From the IMG/VR virus record IMGVR_UViG_3300030102_004953: a stretch of 64,000 nt of DNA; one strand, given 5' to 3'. Shown piece after piece: positions 24,651-41,876 of the stretch. The number at the start of each line of letters is the position of its first letter. The stretch's first letter is position 1. Under the pieces are notes generated by a model, which had not been told where the DNA came from, searched no databases, and saw only the letters and a program-made list of their open reading frames with translations. The stretch is from an uncultured virus (IMG/VR IMGVR_UViG_3300030102_004953) (Duplodnaviria; Heunggongvirae; Uroviricota; Caudoviricetes). The position numbers and the translations under genes are program-made.

Positions 24651-25093
24651 ATTTTAAGTTTCTTAACCAATTTTTTATCAATACCATATGTATCGAAAAT
24701 ACTAAATAATTCTTCTTTACCACTGTCTGAATTTAACAATAAATCTATATACGTGTCAACCTCTTTTTTGCTCGCCTCATAATGTTTACACAATAAATCA
24801 ATCACCCAACTTTCATTTAATTTATCACGAGTTTTCTTACCTTTCATCCACTTGAAATAGTAATTACTTTTTGGTATAAGCTCACTATAAACTTTATATG
24901 TCTCACGTGATTTTAAACCTAACTTTTGCACCTCATTAACTAAATCAACAAAATTAGAGTTCATAGATATAAACCTATTAACCATATACACACTAAACTT
25001 TTTCTGAGAAGCTTCATCGAAAGTATCCCAATTTTCCTTAGTGTTAGTTATCTTTTTGCACCACTCCCACGGTGTTTTAACTACTTTACTCAT
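24647..25093 (-). CDS. clamp loader small subunit (T4 gp62-like)
   Basis: FSVYMVNRFISM...NEVQ...YFKWMK; near the gp44-like gene. Confidence 0.75.
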   Translation of the reverse strand: MSKVVKTPWEWCKKITNTKENWDTFDEASQKKFSVYMVNRFISMNSNFVDLVNEVQKLGLKSRETYKVYSELIPKSNYYFKWMKGKKTRDKLNESWVIDLLCKHYEASKKEVDTYIDLLLNSDSGKEELFSIFDTYGIDKKLVKKLKI

Positions 25094-26582
25094 AAGTGTT
25101 ATCCCTTAATAGGTTTTTATAATAACGTATTTCTTCATCTATTGTTTTCTTAGCAAGTTCAAAATCTACACTTCTATGTGCTTCAGTACAATGTGATTTA
25201 TCTATAAACTTAATAGATTGCATAACTGATAACCAAGATGATAAACCAAAATTTTCTTCTAAATCATCTATAAACATATCTTTACCTGTAGGAAGTCTTT
25301 TATTCTGATATATATCTTCCATAAAATTATCAAACACTTCAGCATATCTTATGTTTCTTTTAGCGTGTTTCCAAAAGTCTGTCGTTCCTCTGTTATTTAT
25401 ATAATGTAGTTGTATAAAACTAAGAAAATGTGAAAATGTTTTACCACAATGTGTATTATAAAGTTCTGATATCAAATTGGTATCATTAGAATTAGATAGT
25501 AAACCAGCCAAGTAATTAGCTTGTCCTGTAGTTATCGTGGTAGCATTAGATTCTAAAGGTTCTATAAAGCCTGATGCTAATCCTACAGCATACATATTTT
25601 TTATACCCAATCGTTCAAACATACCTGTTTTCATATCTATTTTAGAAGTGATATCTATCTTACCAAATCTACTTTCTAATTCTAACACAGCATCATCCGC
25701 TGTAATAAAATCCGAACTATAAACATAACCTCTACTCGTTTTGTTTCTTAATGGTATCTCCCAACTCCAACCACTATTAAACGCTGTTGCAGTTACAAAA
25801 TTCTTTCTAAGAGGTTCATACTTTTCACCAACCTTTTCAAATGCTATAGCACTATCTACAGGTAAAAAATCCTTAAAACTAACAAACTTTTCTTTGAGAA
25901 TCCTTTCGAATAGAACTCTACTAAATCCACTACAATCTATAAAAACATCACCTGATATTTTACTACCATCTTCACAAATAACCTCTTGACAATTACCAAC
26001 GATATCTTTTTTTACATCTACTACTTGATTCTCAACAACTTTGATTCCATATTTCTCTACACAAAAATCAGCTATGTAATCTATAAACTTATTTATATCA
26101 ATATGAAGAGCGTAAGGACCTACTCTACTCGGATAATTCCATTGAACGTCTGTAGTAAAGGTTTGCTCTACAAACTTCTTGATAGGTTTTTTTCTACTCA
26201 ACATCATTTGTGTTCCTATAGCACTAATATCTACCCTCTCATCATTAGCTATAAAAACTTCATCCATCGTGAGTTCATCTTCTACAAAAGGTAAACCAAA
26301 TACTGGATGATAATAATCATACTCTTGAAACCCAACAAACTGAGTTCCCCATTTGTAAGTTCCATTGGATTTATTTAGTATATCATTTTCATCTATTCCA
26401 ATAGCATTGATTAATGTTGCCAGACTTGGGAATGTACTTTCCCCTACTGATAACCTATCTACTTTTGGTGATTCTATTAAGGTTACATCAATAACCTTAG
26501 TAGGATTAGTCTTTTTTACATAAGACAAAGCAGTAGCCATCAACCAACCAGAGCTACCTCCGCCTATTATTACTACCTTCAT
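25086..26582 (-). CDS. flavin-dependent halogenase (tryptophan halogenase/PrnA family)
   Basis: GGGSSG, VGEST, TYKWG (catalytic Lys), IDCSG, WSWEIP, FIEPLES. Confidence 0.9.
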   Translation of the reverse strand: MKVVIIGGGSSGWLMATALSYVKKTNPTKVIDVTLIESPKVDRLSVGESTFPSLATLINAIGIDENDILNKSNGTYKWGTQFVGFQEYDYYHPVFGLPFVEDELTMDEVFIANDERVDISAIGTQMMLSRKKPIKKFVEQTFTTDVQWNYPSRVGPYALHIDINKFIDYIADFCVEKYGIKVVENQVVDVKKDIVGNCQEVICEDGSKISGDVFIDCSGFSRVLFERILKEKFVSFKDFLPVDSAIAFEKVGEKYEPLRKNFVTATAFNSGWSWEIPLRNKTSRGYVYSSDFITADDAVLELESRFGKIDITSKIDMKTGMFERLGIKNMYAVGLASGFIEPLESNATTITTGQANYLAGLLSNSNDTNLISELYNTHCGKTFSHFLSFIQLHYINNRGTTDFWKHAKRNIRYAEVFDNFMEDIYQNKRLPTGKDMFIDDLEENFGLSSWLSVMQSIKFIDKSHCTEAHRSVDFELAKKTIDEEIRYYKNLLRDNTYE

Positions 26583-26842: not shown

Positions 26843-27756
26843 TTTATTACTCCTAGTAATTCTATTAACATAGCCATAGCATTAATTTCTTTATCAACTA
26901 CTACAGCATCACTCTCTTGATACTTTGCGACAATTAGTATAACTTCCGCTACGTGTCCTTTACCAAAATCATCTACATTATCATAAAGTAACCTATACAA
27001 ATCTTCAAACTGAGTAACCTTACTATCTAATAGTAATTTTCTAATACCATTAAATGCAGTTTTCTTATCTTCTTTTAGTAACTCTAAAACTTTTATCTTG
27101 TAATCGTTCTGAATAACACTAGTCTTATCCATCTTTAATTCACCATCAACAACTTGTCTTTGTGCAGCGTTGATTACTCTACGGATATCAGGATACCCAC
27201 TATTAACTATATCAGCAACATCTTTTATTTCATACTTTACACTTTCTTCAGATAAGATATGTACTAATTGTTGTGCCACTTGTTTTCTATCAGGCGGTAT
27301 AACTTGAAATGTCTGACAACGAGATTGTATAGGTGATATTATCTTCTCAACAAAATTACAAGTTAGAATGAATCTACAATGTTTACTGAATGTTTCCATC
27401 ATATTTCTTAAAGCAGCCTGAGCATTTGGTGATAGGTAATCACACTCATCCAAGATAATCACTTTCATATCTTGGAATCCCATTGTAGCTGCAAAGTTCT
27501 TCATTCTTGTTCTGACATTTTCTACGCCTGTTTCATCAGAAGCGTTTATGTAAATATAATCACAATCTATATTACCAACTAATAATTTAGCAAGAGTTGT
27601 TTTTCCTGTACCAGCTTTTCCATACAATAAAAGGTGTGGTAAATCCCCACTATCAAGATACAACTTAACCTTATCTTTTAGCATATCGTTACCTACATAA
27701 TTATCAAGTTGTTGTGGGCGATATTTCTCTACCCATAAAGTATGATTTTTACTCAT
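26839..27756 (-). CDS. clamp loader AAA+ subunit (gp44/RFC small subunit-like)
   Basis: WVEKYRP, GKAGTGKT, LDECD, SRC. Confidence 0.95.
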   Translation of the reverse strand: MSKNHTLWVEKYRPQQLDNYVGNDMLKDKVKLYLDSGDLPHLLLYGKAGTGKTTLAKLLVGNIDCDYIYINASDETGVENVRTRMKNFAATMGFQDMKVIILDECDYLSPNAQAALRNMMETFSKHCRFILTCNFVEKIISPIQSRCQTFQVIPPDRKQVAQQLVHILSEESVKYEIKDVADIVNSGYPDIRRVINAAQRQVVDGELKMDKTSVIQNDYKIKVLELLKEDKKTAFNGIRKLLLDSKVTQFEDLYRLLYDNVDDFGKGHVAEVILIVAKYQESDAVVVDKEINAMAMLIELLGVIK

Positions 27757-28513
27757 TTGTTATTCCTTTATTAACTTCGATTTCTTCGATTGGTGGTAAG
27801 TACTCGTCTGCATTTGTTGGATAATCTTTTGACTCGTACTTCATAAATTTTTTAAATCTTTTATTCTCTGATTTACTTCCTAAAAAATATATATACCTAT
27901 GTTTCTCTGGCTCTCTTCTTCTCCAAAATGTATGTCCTATAGCAGATTTTAGTTTATCTATATTATGGCTACCAAATCTAGCGAAAACAGTTCTACTATG
28001 TATCCAATCATATGGTTCTTCTACCAATGATACTGAATAATTAGGCATAAGATTCAATCCTGCACCTTGATAAATCCAATTTGTAGCTTTGTAGATACCA
28101 CCTAAATGCAACCTATCTGGATCTGCATAACTTATTAATACCTTAACACTTTTATCATAATGTTTCAACCATTTAAACGATTGTGATATTGAATACGATT
28201 CTATGTTTTTACCATAACCATCGTGAATGAAAAGCCTTGTTAATTCAAGAACCGATTCATAATCTATTATTTCTTCTTTGAACAAAGAACCGACTACACT
28301 TCTGCCAACTGGATGCCCATAAGTAAGGCATCCAATTAGCTTTTCTTCTTTCTCACCCTCAAAAAATCTATGTTCCGTATCTTCTTGATAGAAGATTCCA
28401 ATAGCGTGCCTACAGAGTGAGAACTTACGACTATAATGATTTTCTACAATCATTTTCTTAGCCGTCTTTTTGTCTATCTTTCTAAGTACAACCTTAGAAG
28501 TATCAACATACAT
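27749..28513 (-). CDS. Mom-like GNAT-fold DNA modification protein (copy 2)
   Basis: HYSRK, LELTRL, KNIES, ISYAD..HLGGIYKATNW. Confidence 0.8.
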   Translation of the reverse strand: MYVDTSKVVLRKIDKKTAKKMIVENHYSRKFSLCRHAIGIFYQEDTEHRFFEGEKEEKLIGCLTYGHPVGRSVVGSLFKEEIIDYESVLELTRLFIHDGYGKNIESYSISQSFKWLKHYDKSVKVLISYADPDRLHLGGIYKATNWIYQGAGLNLMPNYSVSLVEEPYDWIHSRTVFARFGSHNIDKLKSAIGHTFWRRREPEKHRYIYFLGSKSENKRFKKFMKYESKDYPTNADEYLPPIEEIEVNKGITNE

Positions 28514-32313: not shown

Positions 32314-32339
32314 AAAAAGGGGGGAATAAATCCCCCCTT
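32314..32339 (-). terminator. intrinsic terminator after the TonB-dependent receptor gene
   Basis: AAGGGGGGA-TTTAT-TCCCCCCTT stem followed by a T run on the minus strand. Confidence 0.9.
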
Positions 32340-32346
32340 AATCAAT

Positions 32347-35121
32347 TTAGAAATTAACAGTCAAACCTATGTTTGCATAACGTGGTGTTCCTAAGAATAC
32401 CTCAGCGTTATGTGGTAGGTGAAGTTTATCACCAAACCCATTATAAGGTGAGTTGTCAACTGCGTCTTGTACATATAATGCATCAAGAGCGTTAAATACG
32501 TGACCTGTAATAGCCATATCTAAACCACCAATCTTAGGTAGTTTGTATGAACCGTGTAAGTCTAAACGATTATAGCCTGGTGCTTCCCAAACTTGTGCTC
32601 TATCTGCGTCTGCATCACTACCATCATACTCACGTGCTGCAGGACTCCAATCAGCGTAGTTCTTTTCATACATCTTGAAAATACCTTGTAATCTAAGACC
32701 TTTGATTGGTGTAAGTGTTGCACCCAAGACATAAGAAGTCTGAGGTTGGTCACCTACGAACAATCCATCAAGTGCGTAGTTATATGGTGTCTGAGTAACT
32801 CCAATTACCTGACCTTCACTATTGTATTGGTCTTCTTGGTAGTTACCTTTTGCATCACCATCGAACTTCCAATTACCAAATGATACTGCTCCGTCTAAAC
32901 GAATCATCTCATTGAGTTTCATAGAAGCTTCAATCTCCATACCTTGATGTTTCTGATTGATACCTGATAGGAAGATAACATCAGTATCACCTGATGAACC
33001 TTGACCTGATTGTACTGCTTTAGTCAAGTTTCTATCCATCCAATCAGTATTGTATACGTTTACTTTTACAGCAACGTTTTCTGTTTTGAAGTTTACACCA
33101 GCTTCAGTTGATAAGAATTTCTCATTATCAGGATCGGAAGCGACTGTACCATCATAGTAGATTACGTTATCCATAATTGGTGGTTTCTGAACATATCCAG
33201 CGTTACCAAAGATAGATACATTGTCATCTACATCATAAGTAGCACCACCCTTAACTTGGAAAGTAGAGATAGCGTCTGCTTTGATTACTTCGTTAGCTAC
33301 TGTAAAATGGTCTTGGTAAGAATATTTGATACTTGATAATCCACCCATACCATAAACGTTTAGTTTATCGGCTGTGTAGTTACCTTGTAAAAATCCACCA
33401 ATCCAATCAACCGTTGTTGAGTTGTGATAAGCTATCTCATCACCTAAACGAACAACTTTACCATCAGGAGCGTTATCATCAGCGTAGTCTACGTAGTAAT
33501 CACCACCAAGTAAATCACGAACTTCACGAGCGTGTTCAATACCTGCTGTTCTCCAATCAATACCAAATTGTAATTCAAGTTCATCACTAACAACGTGATT
33601 CAACTTAGAAATAACACCATAAGTGTTCTGTCTATTGATTGAGTTACGAAGAATACCTTTTGAACGATTCTCTGTTGGATGGAAGTTTGTATCCACTCTA
33701 TCTGAGTTGGTTGCGATAGCTGCATCCCAATCCCAACCCCACGGTGAGCTTCTGTACCACTTTTGTCCTTCAACAGCTGGTTTTCTGAACGAACTACCAT
33801 AAGTTCCTGTTCCACCACCTGAACCACCACTCCAATAAAATACAGAACTCAAACGAGTTTTATCTGTAAGAGTTAGGAAATGGTTGATGTTCATAAGTGG
33901 CTTGTGGAAGAAGTTCTCTCTTTCATTCAAGAAATCAGAACTGTATCTATCACGTAGCCCTTTATCAAACAAACCACCGACACCATACATATACCAATAT
34001 TGTTTACCCTTGTAGTCTGAACTAACTGAGCCCCAATTTTGGTTGAATGTTCTACCAGCTTCGGTTTCGAACTTAGCGCCTTCAGCGAAAGCACTTACAT
34101 CATATCCATCGATATCACCAGCTAACTTCTGTGAGTAAGTAGCGATATTCTGTTTGTATAGATTCTGTCCGTGTCTTTGTGGAGCGCCAACTATGTATGC
34201 TTCAACTCTGTGTCCATCGTTGATTGCATATGTAGCACCCATATAGTAAGCCCAAGCATCTGTCCAAGTAGCATCAATAATACCATCACCAGTCTTACGA
34301 ACAAGTGTACCACTAAGTGCTAACTTATCATTCATCATAAGACCTGTATTATAGTTCAGAGTAGTTTTCAAGAAACCACCTGCACCAAACTCTTGCTTAT
34401 ACTTACCACCTCTATCGAAAGCGGCAGGGTCGGTTATGATGTTCATAGTTCCACCAATAGATGGTGTAGCCAAATTGACAGCTGATAAACCACGTTGCAT
34501 CTGAATTGATGCAGCGGCATCTCCAACACCATCCCAATTAGACCAGTATACCCACCCGTTTTCCATATCATTTTGCGGTACACCGTTAATCATAACTGCT
34601 ACGTTTCTCTGGTTGAATCCACGAACATTAATACGGGCATCACCCGCACCACCACCTTGTTGAGTTGCATATACTGATGGAGTTGTATTAAGAACCATAG
34701 GGATATCTTGAGAACCAAGACGAACTTCCATATCTTCCTTAGTTACCATCGAGTAAGCAACAGGTGTTTTTTCATCAGCACGAGAAGCCAAAACTTCAAC
34801 GTCTGATAATTCAATCACGTTTAGTGGTAAAACAAAAGCCATTGTTAAATCATTATCGCCCTCATTTAACTGAACCATTTGTGATTGTGGTTTAAATCCA
34901 ATAACTGTAGCTGTAATTGTGTAGCTTCCAGCACCTAAATCGAGCATAAACATACCACCCTCATCGGTTACCGTACCCTTATCAGTACCTACTACAACAA
35001 TATTAGCATTAGCTAATGGGTCTCCTGCTTCTGATGTAACTTTTCCCGTTACCGATTGTGCGAACAACATCATCGGTGTTAGTAGAGTCATCATCATAGC
35101 AATTAGATTACGATTTCTCAT
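32347..35121 (-). CDS. TonB-dependent outer-membrane receptor with N-terminal carboxypeptidase-regulatory-like domain
   Basis: signal peptide, VTGKVT...GTVTDEGGMF, plug INVRGF...VMINGVP, C-terminal Phe; start at ATG 35121 after GAGGAG. Confidence 0.93.
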   Translation of the reverse strand: MRNRNLIAMMMTLLTPMMLFAQSVTGKVTSEAGDPLANANIVVVGTDKGTVTDEGGMFMLDLGAGSYTITATVIGFKPQSQMVQLNEGDNDLTMAFVLPLNVIELSDVEVLASRADEKTPVAYSMVTKEDMEVRLGSQDIPMVLNTTPSVYATQQGGGAGDARINVRGFNQRNVAVMINGVPQNDMENGWVYWSNWDGVGDAAASIQMQRGLSAVNLATPSIGGTMNIITDPAAFDRGGKYKQEFGAGGFLKTTLNYNTGLMMNDKLALSGTLVRKTGDGIIDATWTDAWAYYMGATYAINDGHRVEAYIVGAPQRHGQNLYKQNIATYSQKLAGDIDGYDVSAFAEGAKFETEAGRTFNQNWGSVSSDYKGKQYWYMYGVGGLFDKGLRDRYSSDFLNERENFFHKPLMNINHFLTLTDKTRLSSVFYWSGGSGGGTGTYGSSFRKPAVEGQKWYRSSPWGWDWDAAIATNSDRVDTNFHPTENRSKGILRNSINRQNTYGVISKLNHVVSDELELQFGIDWRTAGIEHAREVRDLLGGDYYVDYADDNAPDGKVVRLGDEIAYHNSTTVDWIGGFLQGNYTADKLNVYGMGGLSSIKYSYQDHFTVANEVIKADAISTFQVKGGATYDVDDNVSIFGNAGYVQKPPIMDNVIYYDGTVASDPDNEKFLSTEAGVNFKTENVAVKVNVYNTDWMDRNLTKAVQSGQGSSGDTDVIFLSGINQKHQGMEIEASMKLNEMIRLDGAVSFGNWKFDGDAKGNYQEDQYNSEGQVIGVTQTPYNYALDGLFVGDQPQTSYVLGATLTPIKGLRLQGIFKMYEKNYADWSPAAREYDGSDADADRAQVWEAPGYNRLDLHGSYKLPKIGGLDMAITGHVFNALDALYVQDAVDNSPYNGFGDKLHLPHNAEVFLGTPRYANIGLTVNF

Positions 35122-35149
35122 ATCGAATCTCCTCATTATTGTTATGTAC

Positions 35150-35183
35150 GACACATTTTTCTACAGGTGTGTCTACTGCCTGT
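35150..35183 (-). promoter_or_regulatory. putative H-type RNA pseudoknot in the receptor gene leader
   Basis: ACAGG/CCTGT and GACACA/TGTGTC interleaved perfect complements. Confidence 0.55.
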
Positions 35184-35201
35184 TTCTTGGTATGCGAAAT
35201 C

Positions 35202-37211
35202 TTAATTGGCATATTCTTGGTCATCATTATCACCTGTAAATGATGGAACTTCACAGCTATCATTATTACAGAATTTATCTATTTCAGCTTCCTCATTTTT
35301 GATAACACCAAAAGACAACTTACCTAGTTTTTTCATTTGTTTATTGTATTCTTTTTCATCTATAGCTTCATATGGCATTTGTGGATATGCACCATAATCG
35401 TGTCTTGGTAATAACGATATACCTTTCAAGTGATATTGAAAATAATTTAACACTTGAGGTATCTGTTCACCCTCTGTTTTAGGATCGAATGTAACGGTAC
35501 AACTCACTTGGTTATCAGCCCAATGTCGTTGCATAAATGCAGCTAAACTAAATTGTTCCCAAATAGATAACTCACTTGCAGTTCTGATACCCTCTCCAAC
35601 ATCTACTGGCACCTCAACTACGCAAGTTGTATCTTCAGAACCAAATGCAGGTTCTATCTTGTAACCTGCTTTCTTCATAGGTTCAATTAGTTCAGAATGT
35701 TTAGATAACCTAATTCTTCTAATATAAAATCTACTTTCGGGATAATGTAAGCCTGGAGTAGCACCAGCCAATAATGAGACTGTACCACTTGGTTTAACTG
35801 AAGTAGTTTTGATGGAACGTGGTACAGCAAACCAATCTGAATACATCTTATCCCACTCTTGAATAACATCATATCCCTCTTCCAACCAATGTCTAAATTC
35901 ATTAATACCTCTGTTTGTAACAAACTGAGCAACACCACTTACGCTACATCCAATTCTTCTGTTTCTTAGCATCACTCTGTTAGTATCACTCCAATGTGTT
36001 CTACCAAGTGTAACTGTCTTTGCATATAAATATGCGTATTTTAGAGTTCTTGCATAATCTTCGAAACTATCGTGGTTACTTGGAAATGTTTCCACAAGGC
36101 AACACAACTCATATGATTCAAGTGTTTGCTCTAAACAAGGATTACCACCCATAGCTCTATAATCTTTATCATCACCACCATTTTTAATTCTTGAGTAATG
36201 TCTCATATTTTCTAACCAAGCAAAACCTGGCTCACCATTATCTACAATACGTTTTGCAGCTTCTGTATAATCCATACCAAGTTCTGCAAAGATAGAGTTA
36301 TTAGATGTCCATCCAAATGTTTCTCTATGTGGATTAACCTTATAGTTTTTTAAATCCAAGTATTCTTCATTGTGTGGGTCACCAAAAACTATCTCAGCAG
36401 TTCTTCTAACATTACCTGCCACAACACACTTACCAATAAGATTCATTATATCTACGATCGTAGTTATTGTGATTGGTTCACCACTATTTTTTTCTAATAC
36501 TTTTCTGATATCTTCGTGAACTTCTTTCAATGGTTCAGGACCTGAACTAACTCCACCGAATCCTTTGATTGGTTCTCCAGCTGGTCTTACTATACTATAA
36601 TCAAATTGCATAGGAGCAGTTCCGTGGAAATAACTTTCTAAAAGTAAACGAAGTGATTCTACCCAACCCTCACGATTATCTGGTATTTGAAATGTTTCTT
36701 CAGCTCTATCTTTATTTACACCTTTAACAACAATCTCACCTGCGCCTTTAGTATCAAATCCAACTCCAACACCTAACATACTTGCATCCATAAGGAAACA
36801 AAATGGTTTGGAATAATCTTCTTTTATTGTTTTTGTTGAAACAAATGCGCAATTGTTTAGGGCGGCATATAATCCTTTTTCTTCTGTGATTGGTGTTCCC
36901 ATCGCCCACAGCCCGCGTCCAGGAGGCAAGAATTTCATATTAAAAATACGCTCATACATATCTTGAGCTGACTTTTGTGCTTGCCACGCGTTCCACCCTA
37001 ATTGGTGAGACTCAATCCAATTTTTTTGCATTGAGTATGTTCCCTCGACAACCCTTTGAACGGTTTCCCACCATCTCTCATTTTTACCGTTCTCTTTGAT
37101 TCGAGAATAGGTTCTCATATATACTAATTCACCTAATCCATTAAAACCGAAAGGTGCTTTTTTCCTCTTAAATTTATCCAAAAACTTTTCTGACAACTGA
37201 AATTTATCCAT
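35202..37211 (-). CDS. nrdJ: class II adenosylcobalamin-dependent ribonucleotide reductase, monomeric type
   Basis: FLPPGRGLW, LNNCAF, VVAGNVRR, NPCLEQ, SVKPSGTVS, C-terminal CNNDSC. Confidence 0.95.
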   Translation of the reverse strand: MDKFQLSEKFLDKFKRKKAPFGFNGLGELVYMRTYSRIKENGKNERWWETVQRVVEGTYSMQKNWIESHQLGWNAWQAQKSAQDMYERIFNMKFLPPGRGLWAMGTPITEEKGLYAALNNCAFVSTKTIKEDYSKPFCFLMDASMLGVGVGFDTKGAGEIVVKGVNKDRAEETFQIPDNREGWVESLRLLLESYFHGTAPMQFDYSIVRPAGEPIKGFGGVSSGPEPLKEVHEDIRKVLEKNSGEPITITTIVDIMNLIGKCVVAGNVRRTAEIVFGDPHNEEYLDLKNYKVNPHRETFGWTSNNSIFAELGMDYTEAAKRIVDNGEPGFAWLENMRHYSRIKNGGDDKDYRAMGGNPCLEQTLESYELCCLVETFPSNHDSFEDYARTLKYAYLYAKTVTLGRTHWSDTNRVMLRNRRIGCSVSGVAQFVTNRGINEFRHWLEEGYDVIQEWDKMYSDWFAVPRSIKTTSVKPSGTVSLLAGATPGLHYPESRFYIRRIRLSKHSELIEPMKKAGYKIEPAFGSEDTTCVVEVPVDVGEGIRTASELSIWEQFSLAAFMQRHWADNQVSCTVTFDPKTEGEQIPQVLNYFQYHLKGISLLPRHDYGAYPQMPYEAIDEKEYNKQMKKLGKLSFGVIKNEEAEIDKFCNNDSCEVPSFTGDNDDQEYAN

Positions 37212-41007: not shown

Positions 41008-41775
41008 TTAACTATTGAATAAATCGTCAAATGAATCTGTTACAGATTGAACTGAATCAGATTTACCTACTGGAGCATTTGTAGTTTTTTCTTCGGTAGG
41101 TTCATCTGCATCGTCATCATTTTCTGAATTACCATTCACCCAATTTTCAAGGGCTAATGTTAGTTCCTCATAACTCTGCTCTTTATAAATCTCTCGGATA
41201 TCTTTTTGATTCTCCATAAGATTTTCCATTAAAGAAGCATCTTCCGTGATCGGTGTTTGATTAGGTTTAACCCTAATACTTGTTTTAGGATACTGAGCAC
41301 CCAATTCTTCTGCTGTTTTGAACTCGACAACAATATCACGACCATTCATTGAGTCGGTGATATCAAAGTAATCAGGATCGGTATTAATAGATAACAGTTC
41401 TTGATAAACTGTTTTACCAAATCCCCAAAACTTAACACCCTCTGATTCTTGTCCTCTAACCACGATTGGTGCGAAAGTTCTCATCTTAGCTTCTAACTTT
41501 CTACCCATAGCGTAATCATCACGATTGCCGTTAGCTTTCAATTTCTTTGAAAACTCTTCGATTGGGTCAGGACGTCCAAATGAAATTGGTGAAAGATAAT
41601 TTTTCTTACCAATTTGATAATGAAAGTACAATTCAATAAAAGGATTTTCCTTATTGAATTTGTAAGGTACTATTCTAATTTGGGTTTTACCAGCTGATGG
41701 TTTCCACAGATTACTTACACGAGTATTTGATTCTTGAAGTTGGGATAACCTTGCTTTTATTGCGTTAATATCCAT
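41008..41775 (-). CDS. single-stranded DNA-binding protein (gp32-like)
   Basis: IRIVP, ITDSMNGRD, acidic tail ending FDDLFNS; next to the recombinase. Confidence 0.85.
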   Translation of the reverse strand: MDINAIKARLSQLQESNTRVSNLWKPSAGKTQIRIVPYKFNKENPFIELYFHYQIGKKNYLSPISFGRPDPIEEFSKKLKANGNRDDYAMGRKLEAKMRTFAPIVVRGQESEGVKFWGFGKTVYQELLSINTDPDYFDITDSMNGRDIVVEFKTAEELGAQYPKTSIRVKPNQTPITEDASLMENLMENQKDIREIYKEQSYEELTLALENWVNGNSENDDDADEPTEEKTTNAPVGKSDSVQSVTDSFDDLFNS

Positions 41776-41876
41776 TCGATATTCTCCTATTGTTTACTGT
41801 TTATTTGTTAATTCGTATTCGAGACATTCTCGTCTCAAACATAAATATAACCTTATGTTTAAAAAACGTATTTTTT

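Follow-up and report, generated by a model that had tools for sequence, protein, structure and literature searches.

What is a compact RNA pseudoknot doing in the leader of a phage-encoded receptor gene, and is the structure real in the first place? The locus lies in a window of 64,000 nt, the whole stretch of DNA that was analysed, which comes from a T4-like marine phage. All 60-odd long open reading frames of the window are on the minus strand, and the neighbours of the locus form the phage replication module, with genes for a DnaB-like helicase, a family B polymerase, a 5'-3' exonuclease, a UvsX-like recombinase, a gp32-like SSB, a sliding clamp and a clamp loader. The G+C content is 33%, and Shine-Dalgarno (SD) sequences are found at many genes. 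Inside the replication module, PHROG matches at 25086-26582 and 27749-28513 (minus strand) correspond to a tryptophan-halogenase-like protein and a Mom-like DNA modification protein. The window also contains a run of 83 N at positions 1348-1430.

The gene served by the leader (32347..35121, minus strand) encodes a protein of 924 aa, which was identified as a TonB-dependent receptor on the basis of its CarboxypepD_reg-like and Plug domains (CarbopepD_reg_2, CarboxypepD_reg and Plug); its relatives additionally carry the barrel family PF00593. Comparison with the SusC/RagA, haem and BtuB models gave weak N-terminal matches only, BtuB scoring 28 bits against a cut-off of 836, and a protein search in metagenome collections yielded no useful name for the receptor family. 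An intrinsic terminator, consisting of a GGGGGGA/TCCCCCC hairpin and a T run (32314..32337, minus strand), follows 10 nt past the receptor stop codon. A strict hairpin with a T tail was found downstream of the receptor in 50 of the 74 distinct regions from relatives, and by eye many of the other 24 likewise have a G-run/C-run hairpin, whose stem is imperfect or whose loop is longer. After this terminator, many relatives show an A-tract and CTTGAC, resembling the -35 part of the next promoter. The upstream gene (35202..37211, minus strand; stop codon 35204-35202) encodes an adenosylcobalamin-dependent ribonucleoside-triphosphate reductase (TIGR02505, 368 bits, above the cut-off). In 32347-37211 (minus strand), the phage's own TonB-dependent receptor gene is thereby placed directly 3' of an adenosylcobalamin-dependent reductase.

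Between these two genes, an earlier note had described an H-type pseudoknot at 35150..35183 (minus strand), with two stems, no base between them, an A-rich loop 3 and a distance of about 15 nt to the sequence GAGGAG, and all of these details proved correct. The element spans 34 nt, from 35183 to 35150 on the minus strand, and its two interleaved stems are both perfectly Watson-Crick paired. The 5' strand of stem 1, ACAGG (35179..35183), pairs with CCTGT (35163..35167), while the 5' strand of stem 2, GACACA (35168..35173), pairs with TGTGTC (35150..35155). Loop 1, CAGTA (35174..35178, 5 nt), crosses stem 2, loop 3, the A-rich AGAAAAA (35156..35162, 7 nt), crosses stem 1, and the 3' strand of stem 1 abuts stem 2 without a linker.

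Taken by itself, the window does not allow this pseudoknot to be distinguished from chance. A scan for H-type patterns with a stem 1 of 5 bp, a stem 2 of 6 bp and loops of defined length (L1 1-7, L2 0-1, L3 3-10) found 16 in the window versus 8.1 +/- 4.5 in 40 dinucleotide shuffles, which is not above chance. Folding of the 116-nt leader was unremarkable relative to shuffles (z -1.05), and the single stems have energies of only -4.4 and -4.6 kcal/mol.

Comparative evidence for the pseudoknot

Homologous leaders were collected from IMG/VR through protein-based scans. The first scan used the receptor as the query, confirmed 310 relatives and kept 77 loci (63-100% identity); the knot was found in 73 of the 73 loci with upstream DNA, the remaining four being cut before the knot site. 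The second used a deep-branching relative (L071) as the query, confirmed 398 relatives and kept 80 loci, and the knot was again found in every locus having at least 110 nt upstream (75 of 75). This second set contains 12 variants that depart from the initial search pattern with both helices intact, as well as two loci that show only the 3' part of the knot because of the offset of the 110-nt extract.

An alignment of 47 distinct variants drawn from both protein-retrieved sets (A2) showed standard pairing in 97.1% of 517 cells and two-sided changes at 6 of the 11 pairs, three in each stem. Four pairs switch cleanly, with zero unpaired cells: pairs 2 and 3 of stem 1 covary as C:G (42 variants) or U:A (5) and as A:U (40) or U:A (7), and pairs 2 and 4 of stem 2 are each A:U in 40 variants and G:C in 7. 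The covariation score of the alignment was 0.207 against 0.088 +/- 0.008 after shuffling, a value that 0 of 500 shuffles reached, and slid partners scored at most 0.067. The same pairing and covariation picture emerged from a larger set of 59 variants, which was partly retrieved by a DNA pattern fixing some positions and from which L170, L185 and L190 were left out as chance pattern matches without a receptor gene. On a FastTree phylogeny of 51 distinct receptor proteins, pair 4 of stem 2 switched at least six times and pair 2 of stem 1 at least four times, both sides together, although recombination of leaders could inflate these counts. Covariation in both stems among homologous leaders was the test that the earlier note had named, and its outcome is the opposite of a refutation. 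Judged by these aligned leaders, the pseudoknot is real and strongly conserved, and we regard the comparative evidence as decisive.

The same alignment bears on the question of whether the element acts at the level of DNA, either as a recombination or insertion site of a gene cassette or as a protein site on folded single-stranded DNA. The presence of the cassette behind different genes in different phages, with the knot at its 5' boundary, would suit such a site. However, the covariation preserves two interleaved helices, which have no known use in duplex DNA, and the few G.U pairs of the knot are compatible with the sense strand only, turning into C.A mismatches on the opposite strand. Moreover, all genes are on the strand of the knot, the knot falls in the interval from a stop codon to an SD and keeps a fixed distance to the start codon, and no repeat of it occurs at the other end of the cassette or elsewhere. 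A DNA-level site is thus very improbable.

Among the 47 variants, none has a base between the two stems, and the two junction-side G:C pairs of stem 1 are invariant, as are pairs 3, 5 and 6 of stem 2. Stem 1 effectively comprises 4 to 5 bp, as its outermost pair is weak (unpaired in 13 variants); pair 1 of stem 2 is G:C in 41 variants, A:U in 3 and G.U in 1. Loop 1 keeps its opening CA in at least 90% of the variants and is free to vary at its last two bases; L283 has ATAAG and L264 a 4-nt loop. The final four A of loop 3 never change, and at least 90% of the variants retain the fifth; the loop varies in its first bases and in its length (4 to 9 nt). Overall, 14 of 54 aligned columns (the knot and its 10-nt flanks) are invariant and all 14 fall inside the 34-nt knot, made up of the invariant pairs named above in the two stems and the four A that close loop 3.

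The two stems stack into one 11-bp helix. As the invariant bases gather around the junction and in the A-run, we infer a triplex core by analogy with known compact pseudoknots: loop 3 would occupy the minor groove of stem 1, with its adenines at the G:C pairs, and loop 1 would enter the major groove of stem 2 with its first bases, which would make this core rigid. In the MFE fold of the window, stem 2 is prolonged by GTA/TAC, an extension that was rejected as relatives do not keep it. A sigma-70-type promoter within the knot was also rejected: TTGAC is present only in some loop 1 variants, and the promoter-like match of the window rests on the variable linker.

The receptor cassette and its leader

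The pseudoknot is present in a single copy per phage record, always 5' of the receptor gene. A covariance model found one copy in the window (61.3 bits; next match 11.8 bits, E 0.49) and one strong match in each of five other phage records (44-165 kb). A pattern scan of one genome per species, covering 185,579 bacterial and archaeal species, gave two matches, both of which are short phage-like MAG contigs with the layout reductase-knot-receptor. One of these two MAGs (1.9 Mb) also has a cellular-looking receptor homologue with 67% identity over residues 8-293 (L207, G006 C156, 786-1655). No knot was found in the 210-nt region upstream of this homologue, and the gene before it is an ORF resembling, by eye, an SRAP-family peptidase. 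The upstream neighbour of the knot is the reductase in 63 of 71 loci and another gene in the other 8, where the knot is still found with the receptor. Since the knot accompanies the receptor behind differing genes and is absent at the cellular homologue, it belongs to a portable phage receptor cassette, and neither to the reductase nor to the cellular gene.

The gene preceding the cassette in L001 (1918-2919), L039 and L046 encodes a short glutamine-synthetase-like protein (Gln-synt_C, Gln-synt_N). A protein search recovered 5682 receptor relatives in metagenome collections; GenBank phages gave no match at the DNA level and, at the protein level, only unannotated records whose receptors reach no more than 31% identity. 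In the ESM Atlas, the cellular clusters nearest to the receptor are mostly Fidelibacterota, which we take to be the phylum also named Marinimicrobia or SAR406, and this provides a lead toward the host.

Downstream of the knot, the linker to the SD (35135..35149, minus strand; 15 nt in the window) is unstructured and G-poor. In 114 distinct leaders it is composed of 56% A, 22% T, 18% C and 4% G, is variable in sequence and measures 15-19 nt in 92 of them. The SD GAGGAG (35129..35134, minus strand) is followed by 7 nt and then by the ATG at 35121-35119, and an SD of the GGAG type is kept in relatives. The distance from the end of the knot to the ATG is 27-30 nt in 70 of 92 distinct leaders and spans 24-39 nt overall. 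An in-frame GTG at 35154 was rejected as the start codon in favour of the ATG at 35121, because the linkers differ in length and sequence among relatives.

Partition-function folding of the 114 leaders predicted hardly any pairing between the knot and the initiation region (median 0.01 bp, mean 0.21). No intrinsic terminator was found 3' of the knot on the minus strand, where GTACATAAC comes after the knot; a terminator-like site was seen solely on the plus strand, at 35163-35183, where no gene runs. In the absence of both knot-to-initiation pairing and a terminator, the leader has no classical expression platform, which argues against a classical riboswitch.

A portable cassette made of pseudoknot, linker, SD, receptor and intrinsic terminator, found behind different genes, could be headed by a passive structural module without any specific partner. 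Such a module would work as a ribonuclease barrier, protecting the 5' end after transcript processing, and as an insulator that keeps the A-rich ribosome landing site single-stranded whatever the upstream gene. By analogy with pseudoknots of the frameshifter type, triplex contacts alone could account for all the invariant bases of the knot, which supports this possibility. An RNA-library contig (X4 record 17; 35166-35316, no differences) runs from the 3' end of the reductase gene into the knot and fits a polycistronic precursor, and metatranscriptome contigs from four runs extend over the end of the reductase gene, the knot and portions of the receptor gene. These contigs, however, cannot reveal RNA ends, gaps in their cover are uninformative, and DNA may be present in RNA libraries. 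In the accessible part of PMC3014915, the T4 gene 32 mRNA starts near its pseudoknot after RNase E cleavage and is the most stable T4 message, which also suits a passive module. On the other hand, such a module would need neither 14 invariant positions out of 34 nor a fixed distance to the start codon, and the cellular homologue manages without a knot. We therefore retain a passive module as a tentative alternative only.

Known RNA families and possible roles

The 4227 models of Rfam 15 gave no family at gathering thresholds in the window or at E<=10 in 34900-35500, and ten other knot variants gave no match at E<=1. Weak matches were to eukaryotic families only, with E above 0.6 and scores below half of the gathering scores. 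No model match was obtained for preQ1-I (RF00522), cobalamin (RF00174, RF01689 and relatives), SAM-II/SAM-V, guanidine-III, fluoride or other small pseudoknot riboswitches, which bears out the remark in the earlier note that the element does not resemble the cobalamin, preQ1-I or SAM-II consensus. Full-text literature searches turned up no paper describing the motif or the reductase-receptor cassette. The proposal of an undescribed cis-regulatory or mRNA-stabilising RNA is supported by these searches, together with the recovery of the knot in all leaders of both scans (73 of 73 and 75 of 75).

In preQ1-I-type aptamers, which are H-type pseudoknots, an inter-stem loop carries the C that pairs with the ligand, and the SD is overlapped by the 3' strand of stem 2 or a terminator comes next. 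The receptor-leader knot shares with RF00522 a size of about 34 nt, the H-type fold, a first stem of 5 bp and an A-rich 3' loop that precedes the second stem. In contrast to preQ1-I, it has no inter-stem loop (47 of 47 variants), a stem 2 of 6 bp and a loop 1 of 5 nt, its SD is located outside the knot (15-19 nt downstream in 92 of 114 leaders), and it serves no queuosine genes. With no base between the stems, a pocket of the preQ1-I type is missing. Cobalamin riboswitches are multi-helix aptamers several times larger than the 34-nt knot. Like RF00174 and its variants, the knot precedes a TonB-dependent receptor and has a B12-dependent enzyme adjoining, but this gene context is all they have in common, and no Rfam match links the two.

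Compact triplex pseudoknots of the luteovirus type have a short GC-rich first stem, a loop 1 that begins with C, an A-rich last loop and abutting stems, and the receptor-leader knot resembles these frameshift and read-through elements in each of these features. Unlike recoding pseudoknots, it lies outside any reading frame. A recoding function was rejected, the gap between the upstream stop codon and the knot being 8-39 nt and the upstream gene differing in 8 of 71 loci, and an intrinsic terminator or attenuator was rejected for lack of a hairpin and U run on the transcribed strand. The pseudoknot is a new RNA family, of a type already known.

The similarity in size and layout to preQ1-I-type aptamers also speaks for a new class of small-molecule riboswitch, in which the 34-nt triplex knot would be the entire aptamer and would alter ribosome access or mRNA decay with the SD left unsequestered. 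The putative ligand would be the cargo of the receptor or a related metabolite; a cobamide is our guess here, made because a B12-dependent reductase adjoins. That the receptor takes up cobamides for this reductase is likewise a guess, and its match to BtuB is weak. The knot has invariant bases at the helical junction and in the loops and covarying distal pairs, as aptamers do, and it is tied to one transporter gene, usually behind the adenosylcobalamin-dependent reductase. Furthermore, its folding could be ligand-dependent given the marginal stability of each stem alone (-4.4 and -4.6 kcal/mol). Enhanced B12 uptake by viruses with this reductase class is a speculation of the preprint 10.1101/2023.03.13.532061, in the accessible text of which the term 'receptor' is absent by term count; the accessible part of PMC8620254 deals with bacterial btuB genes only.

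Several observations stand against such a sensor. No expression platform is present, the SD being 15-19 nt off behind a variable linker and no terminator being found, loop 1 can be replaced wholesale (L283) or shortened (L264), and no Rfam family matches. In addition, the motif is lacking in the 185,579 species genomes except for the two phage-like MAG contigs, and is also lacking at the cellular homologue, which would be unusual for a metabolite sensor. Hence, we consider a new riboswitch class unlikely, and doubt even more the specific version of a phage-only class whose 34-nt aptamer would sense the cargo of the phage receptor and affect ribosome loading or decay from a distance, instead of masking the SD. 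If the latter is true, no natural sensor for such a ligand would be smaller, and a viral nutrient-uptake gene would follow a new regulatory logic.

Most likely, the knot controls the translation or the stability of the receptor message. We favour a translational operator with the design of the T4 gene 32 leader, at a probability of roughly 0.4, acting through a protein or the 30S subunit and perhaps through stability of the 5' end, on the basis of the gene 32-like layout and of a linker make-up equal to that of SSB leaders. According to the accessible part of PMC3014915, the gene 32 pseudoknot of T4 nucleates cooperative gp32 binding over an unstructured A+U-rich stretch up to the ribosome-binding site. 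Like the T4/T2 gene 32 leader, the receptor leader belongs to a T4-type phage and combines an H-type pseudoknot with stacked stems, 5' of the initiation region, with an unstructured A-rich stretch from the knot to the ribosome-binding site. Unlike it, the receptor knot does not precede the SSB gene and is hence not autogenous, and it is located about 28 nt from the start codon instead of about 40-67 nt, and its linker is far shorter. The two leaders are not alike in sequence.

In an operator of this kind, the folded knot would mark the 5' edge of the initiation region and would nucleate or anchor a factor on the single-stranded linker. Candidates for this factor are the phage gp32-like SSB, another RNA-binding protein, or the 30S platform/S1, and the bound factor would govern how readily ribosomes reach the SD. 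Once the reductase-receptor transcript has been processed, the knot would in addition protect the receptor message on its 5' side. The analysis shows the structure, its conservation, its exclusive association with the receptor gene, its spacing and the character of the linker, whereas the triplex, the partner, the direction of the regulation and any influence on stability are inferred.

The leaders of SSB genes were compared with the receptor linker. In the window, the gp32-like SSB gene (41008-41775) has a leader (41776-41876, minus strand) with a GAGAC/GTCTC hairpin followed by a G-poor stretch, and SSB leaders in related phages (L293-L372) have a hairpin and then AUAAAC-type repeats up to the SD. 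The SSB leaders and the receptor linker have the same composition (A 0.56, G 0.05) and contain 4.0 and 5.0 AAAC per 100 nt, versus 1.27 in the other upstream regions of the window, a contrast that is overstated because the comparison regions are partly coding sequence of tightly packed genes. The SSB-gene leader itself resembles what could be an autoregulatory operator of the T4 gene 32 type in marine T4-like phages.

A single protein reading both leaders is no obvious fit, since the SSB leader has a hairpin and no second copy of the knot is present in the six records. Being an outer-membrane protein, the receptor cannot autoregulate, which also counts against an operator. The linker presumably offers room for only about two SSB monomers, judging by the gp32 site size, far below the gene 32 leaders. 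Lastly, the invariant core and the A-rich loop would suit a ligand pocket equally well.

If real, the element would constitute a very compact family of structured RNA, seemingly confined to abundant uncultured marine T4-like phages. The cassette that it heads equips the phage with its own TonB-dependent outer-membrane receptor, and could offer a handle on how a virus times or doses a nutrient-uptake gene during infection. With its 34-nt size, clean covariation, invariant junction core and lack of an expression platform, the knot is well suited to the study of regulation that acts away from the SD, of gene 32-type operators beyond the SSB gene, or of an orphan riboswitch.

Other features of the leader

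The longest linkers (L015, L076, L077, L078, L095, L102, L138, L144 and L168) contain a short palindrome, e.g., TTCGTTAACGAA or ATTCATTAATGAAT, which, if folded, would restore the usual effective distance. The start codon is found in the loop of a small hairpin (35100-35128, minus strand) formed by the bases before the ATG and codons 3-4, with CGAT/ATCG in the window and ACGTTT/AAACGT in other leaders. The best helix of this hairpin reaches at least 5 bp in 86 of 92 leaders, versus about 50% when the upstream 10 nt are shuffled. Codons 4-6 of the receptor gene, CGTAATCT, are nearly invariant at the DNA level.

Upstream of the knot, the window carries the optional box TTCGCATAC (consensus TTCRCRTAY; 35190..35198, minus strand). 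This box was found in 49 of 86 distinct contexts, 0-22 nt 5' of the knot within the 70 nt upstream that were examined, and is placed outside the core element as it is missing from whole clades. Pairing of the box with the 3' strand of stem 2 was rejected: there is no covariation between them, since many stem 2 variants of the G:C type keep a CACA box, which by eye gives A.C mismatches. In some loci, the box can pair with the end of the upstream gene, as GGTAT/ATACC in L055 and GTATGT/ACATAC in L001.
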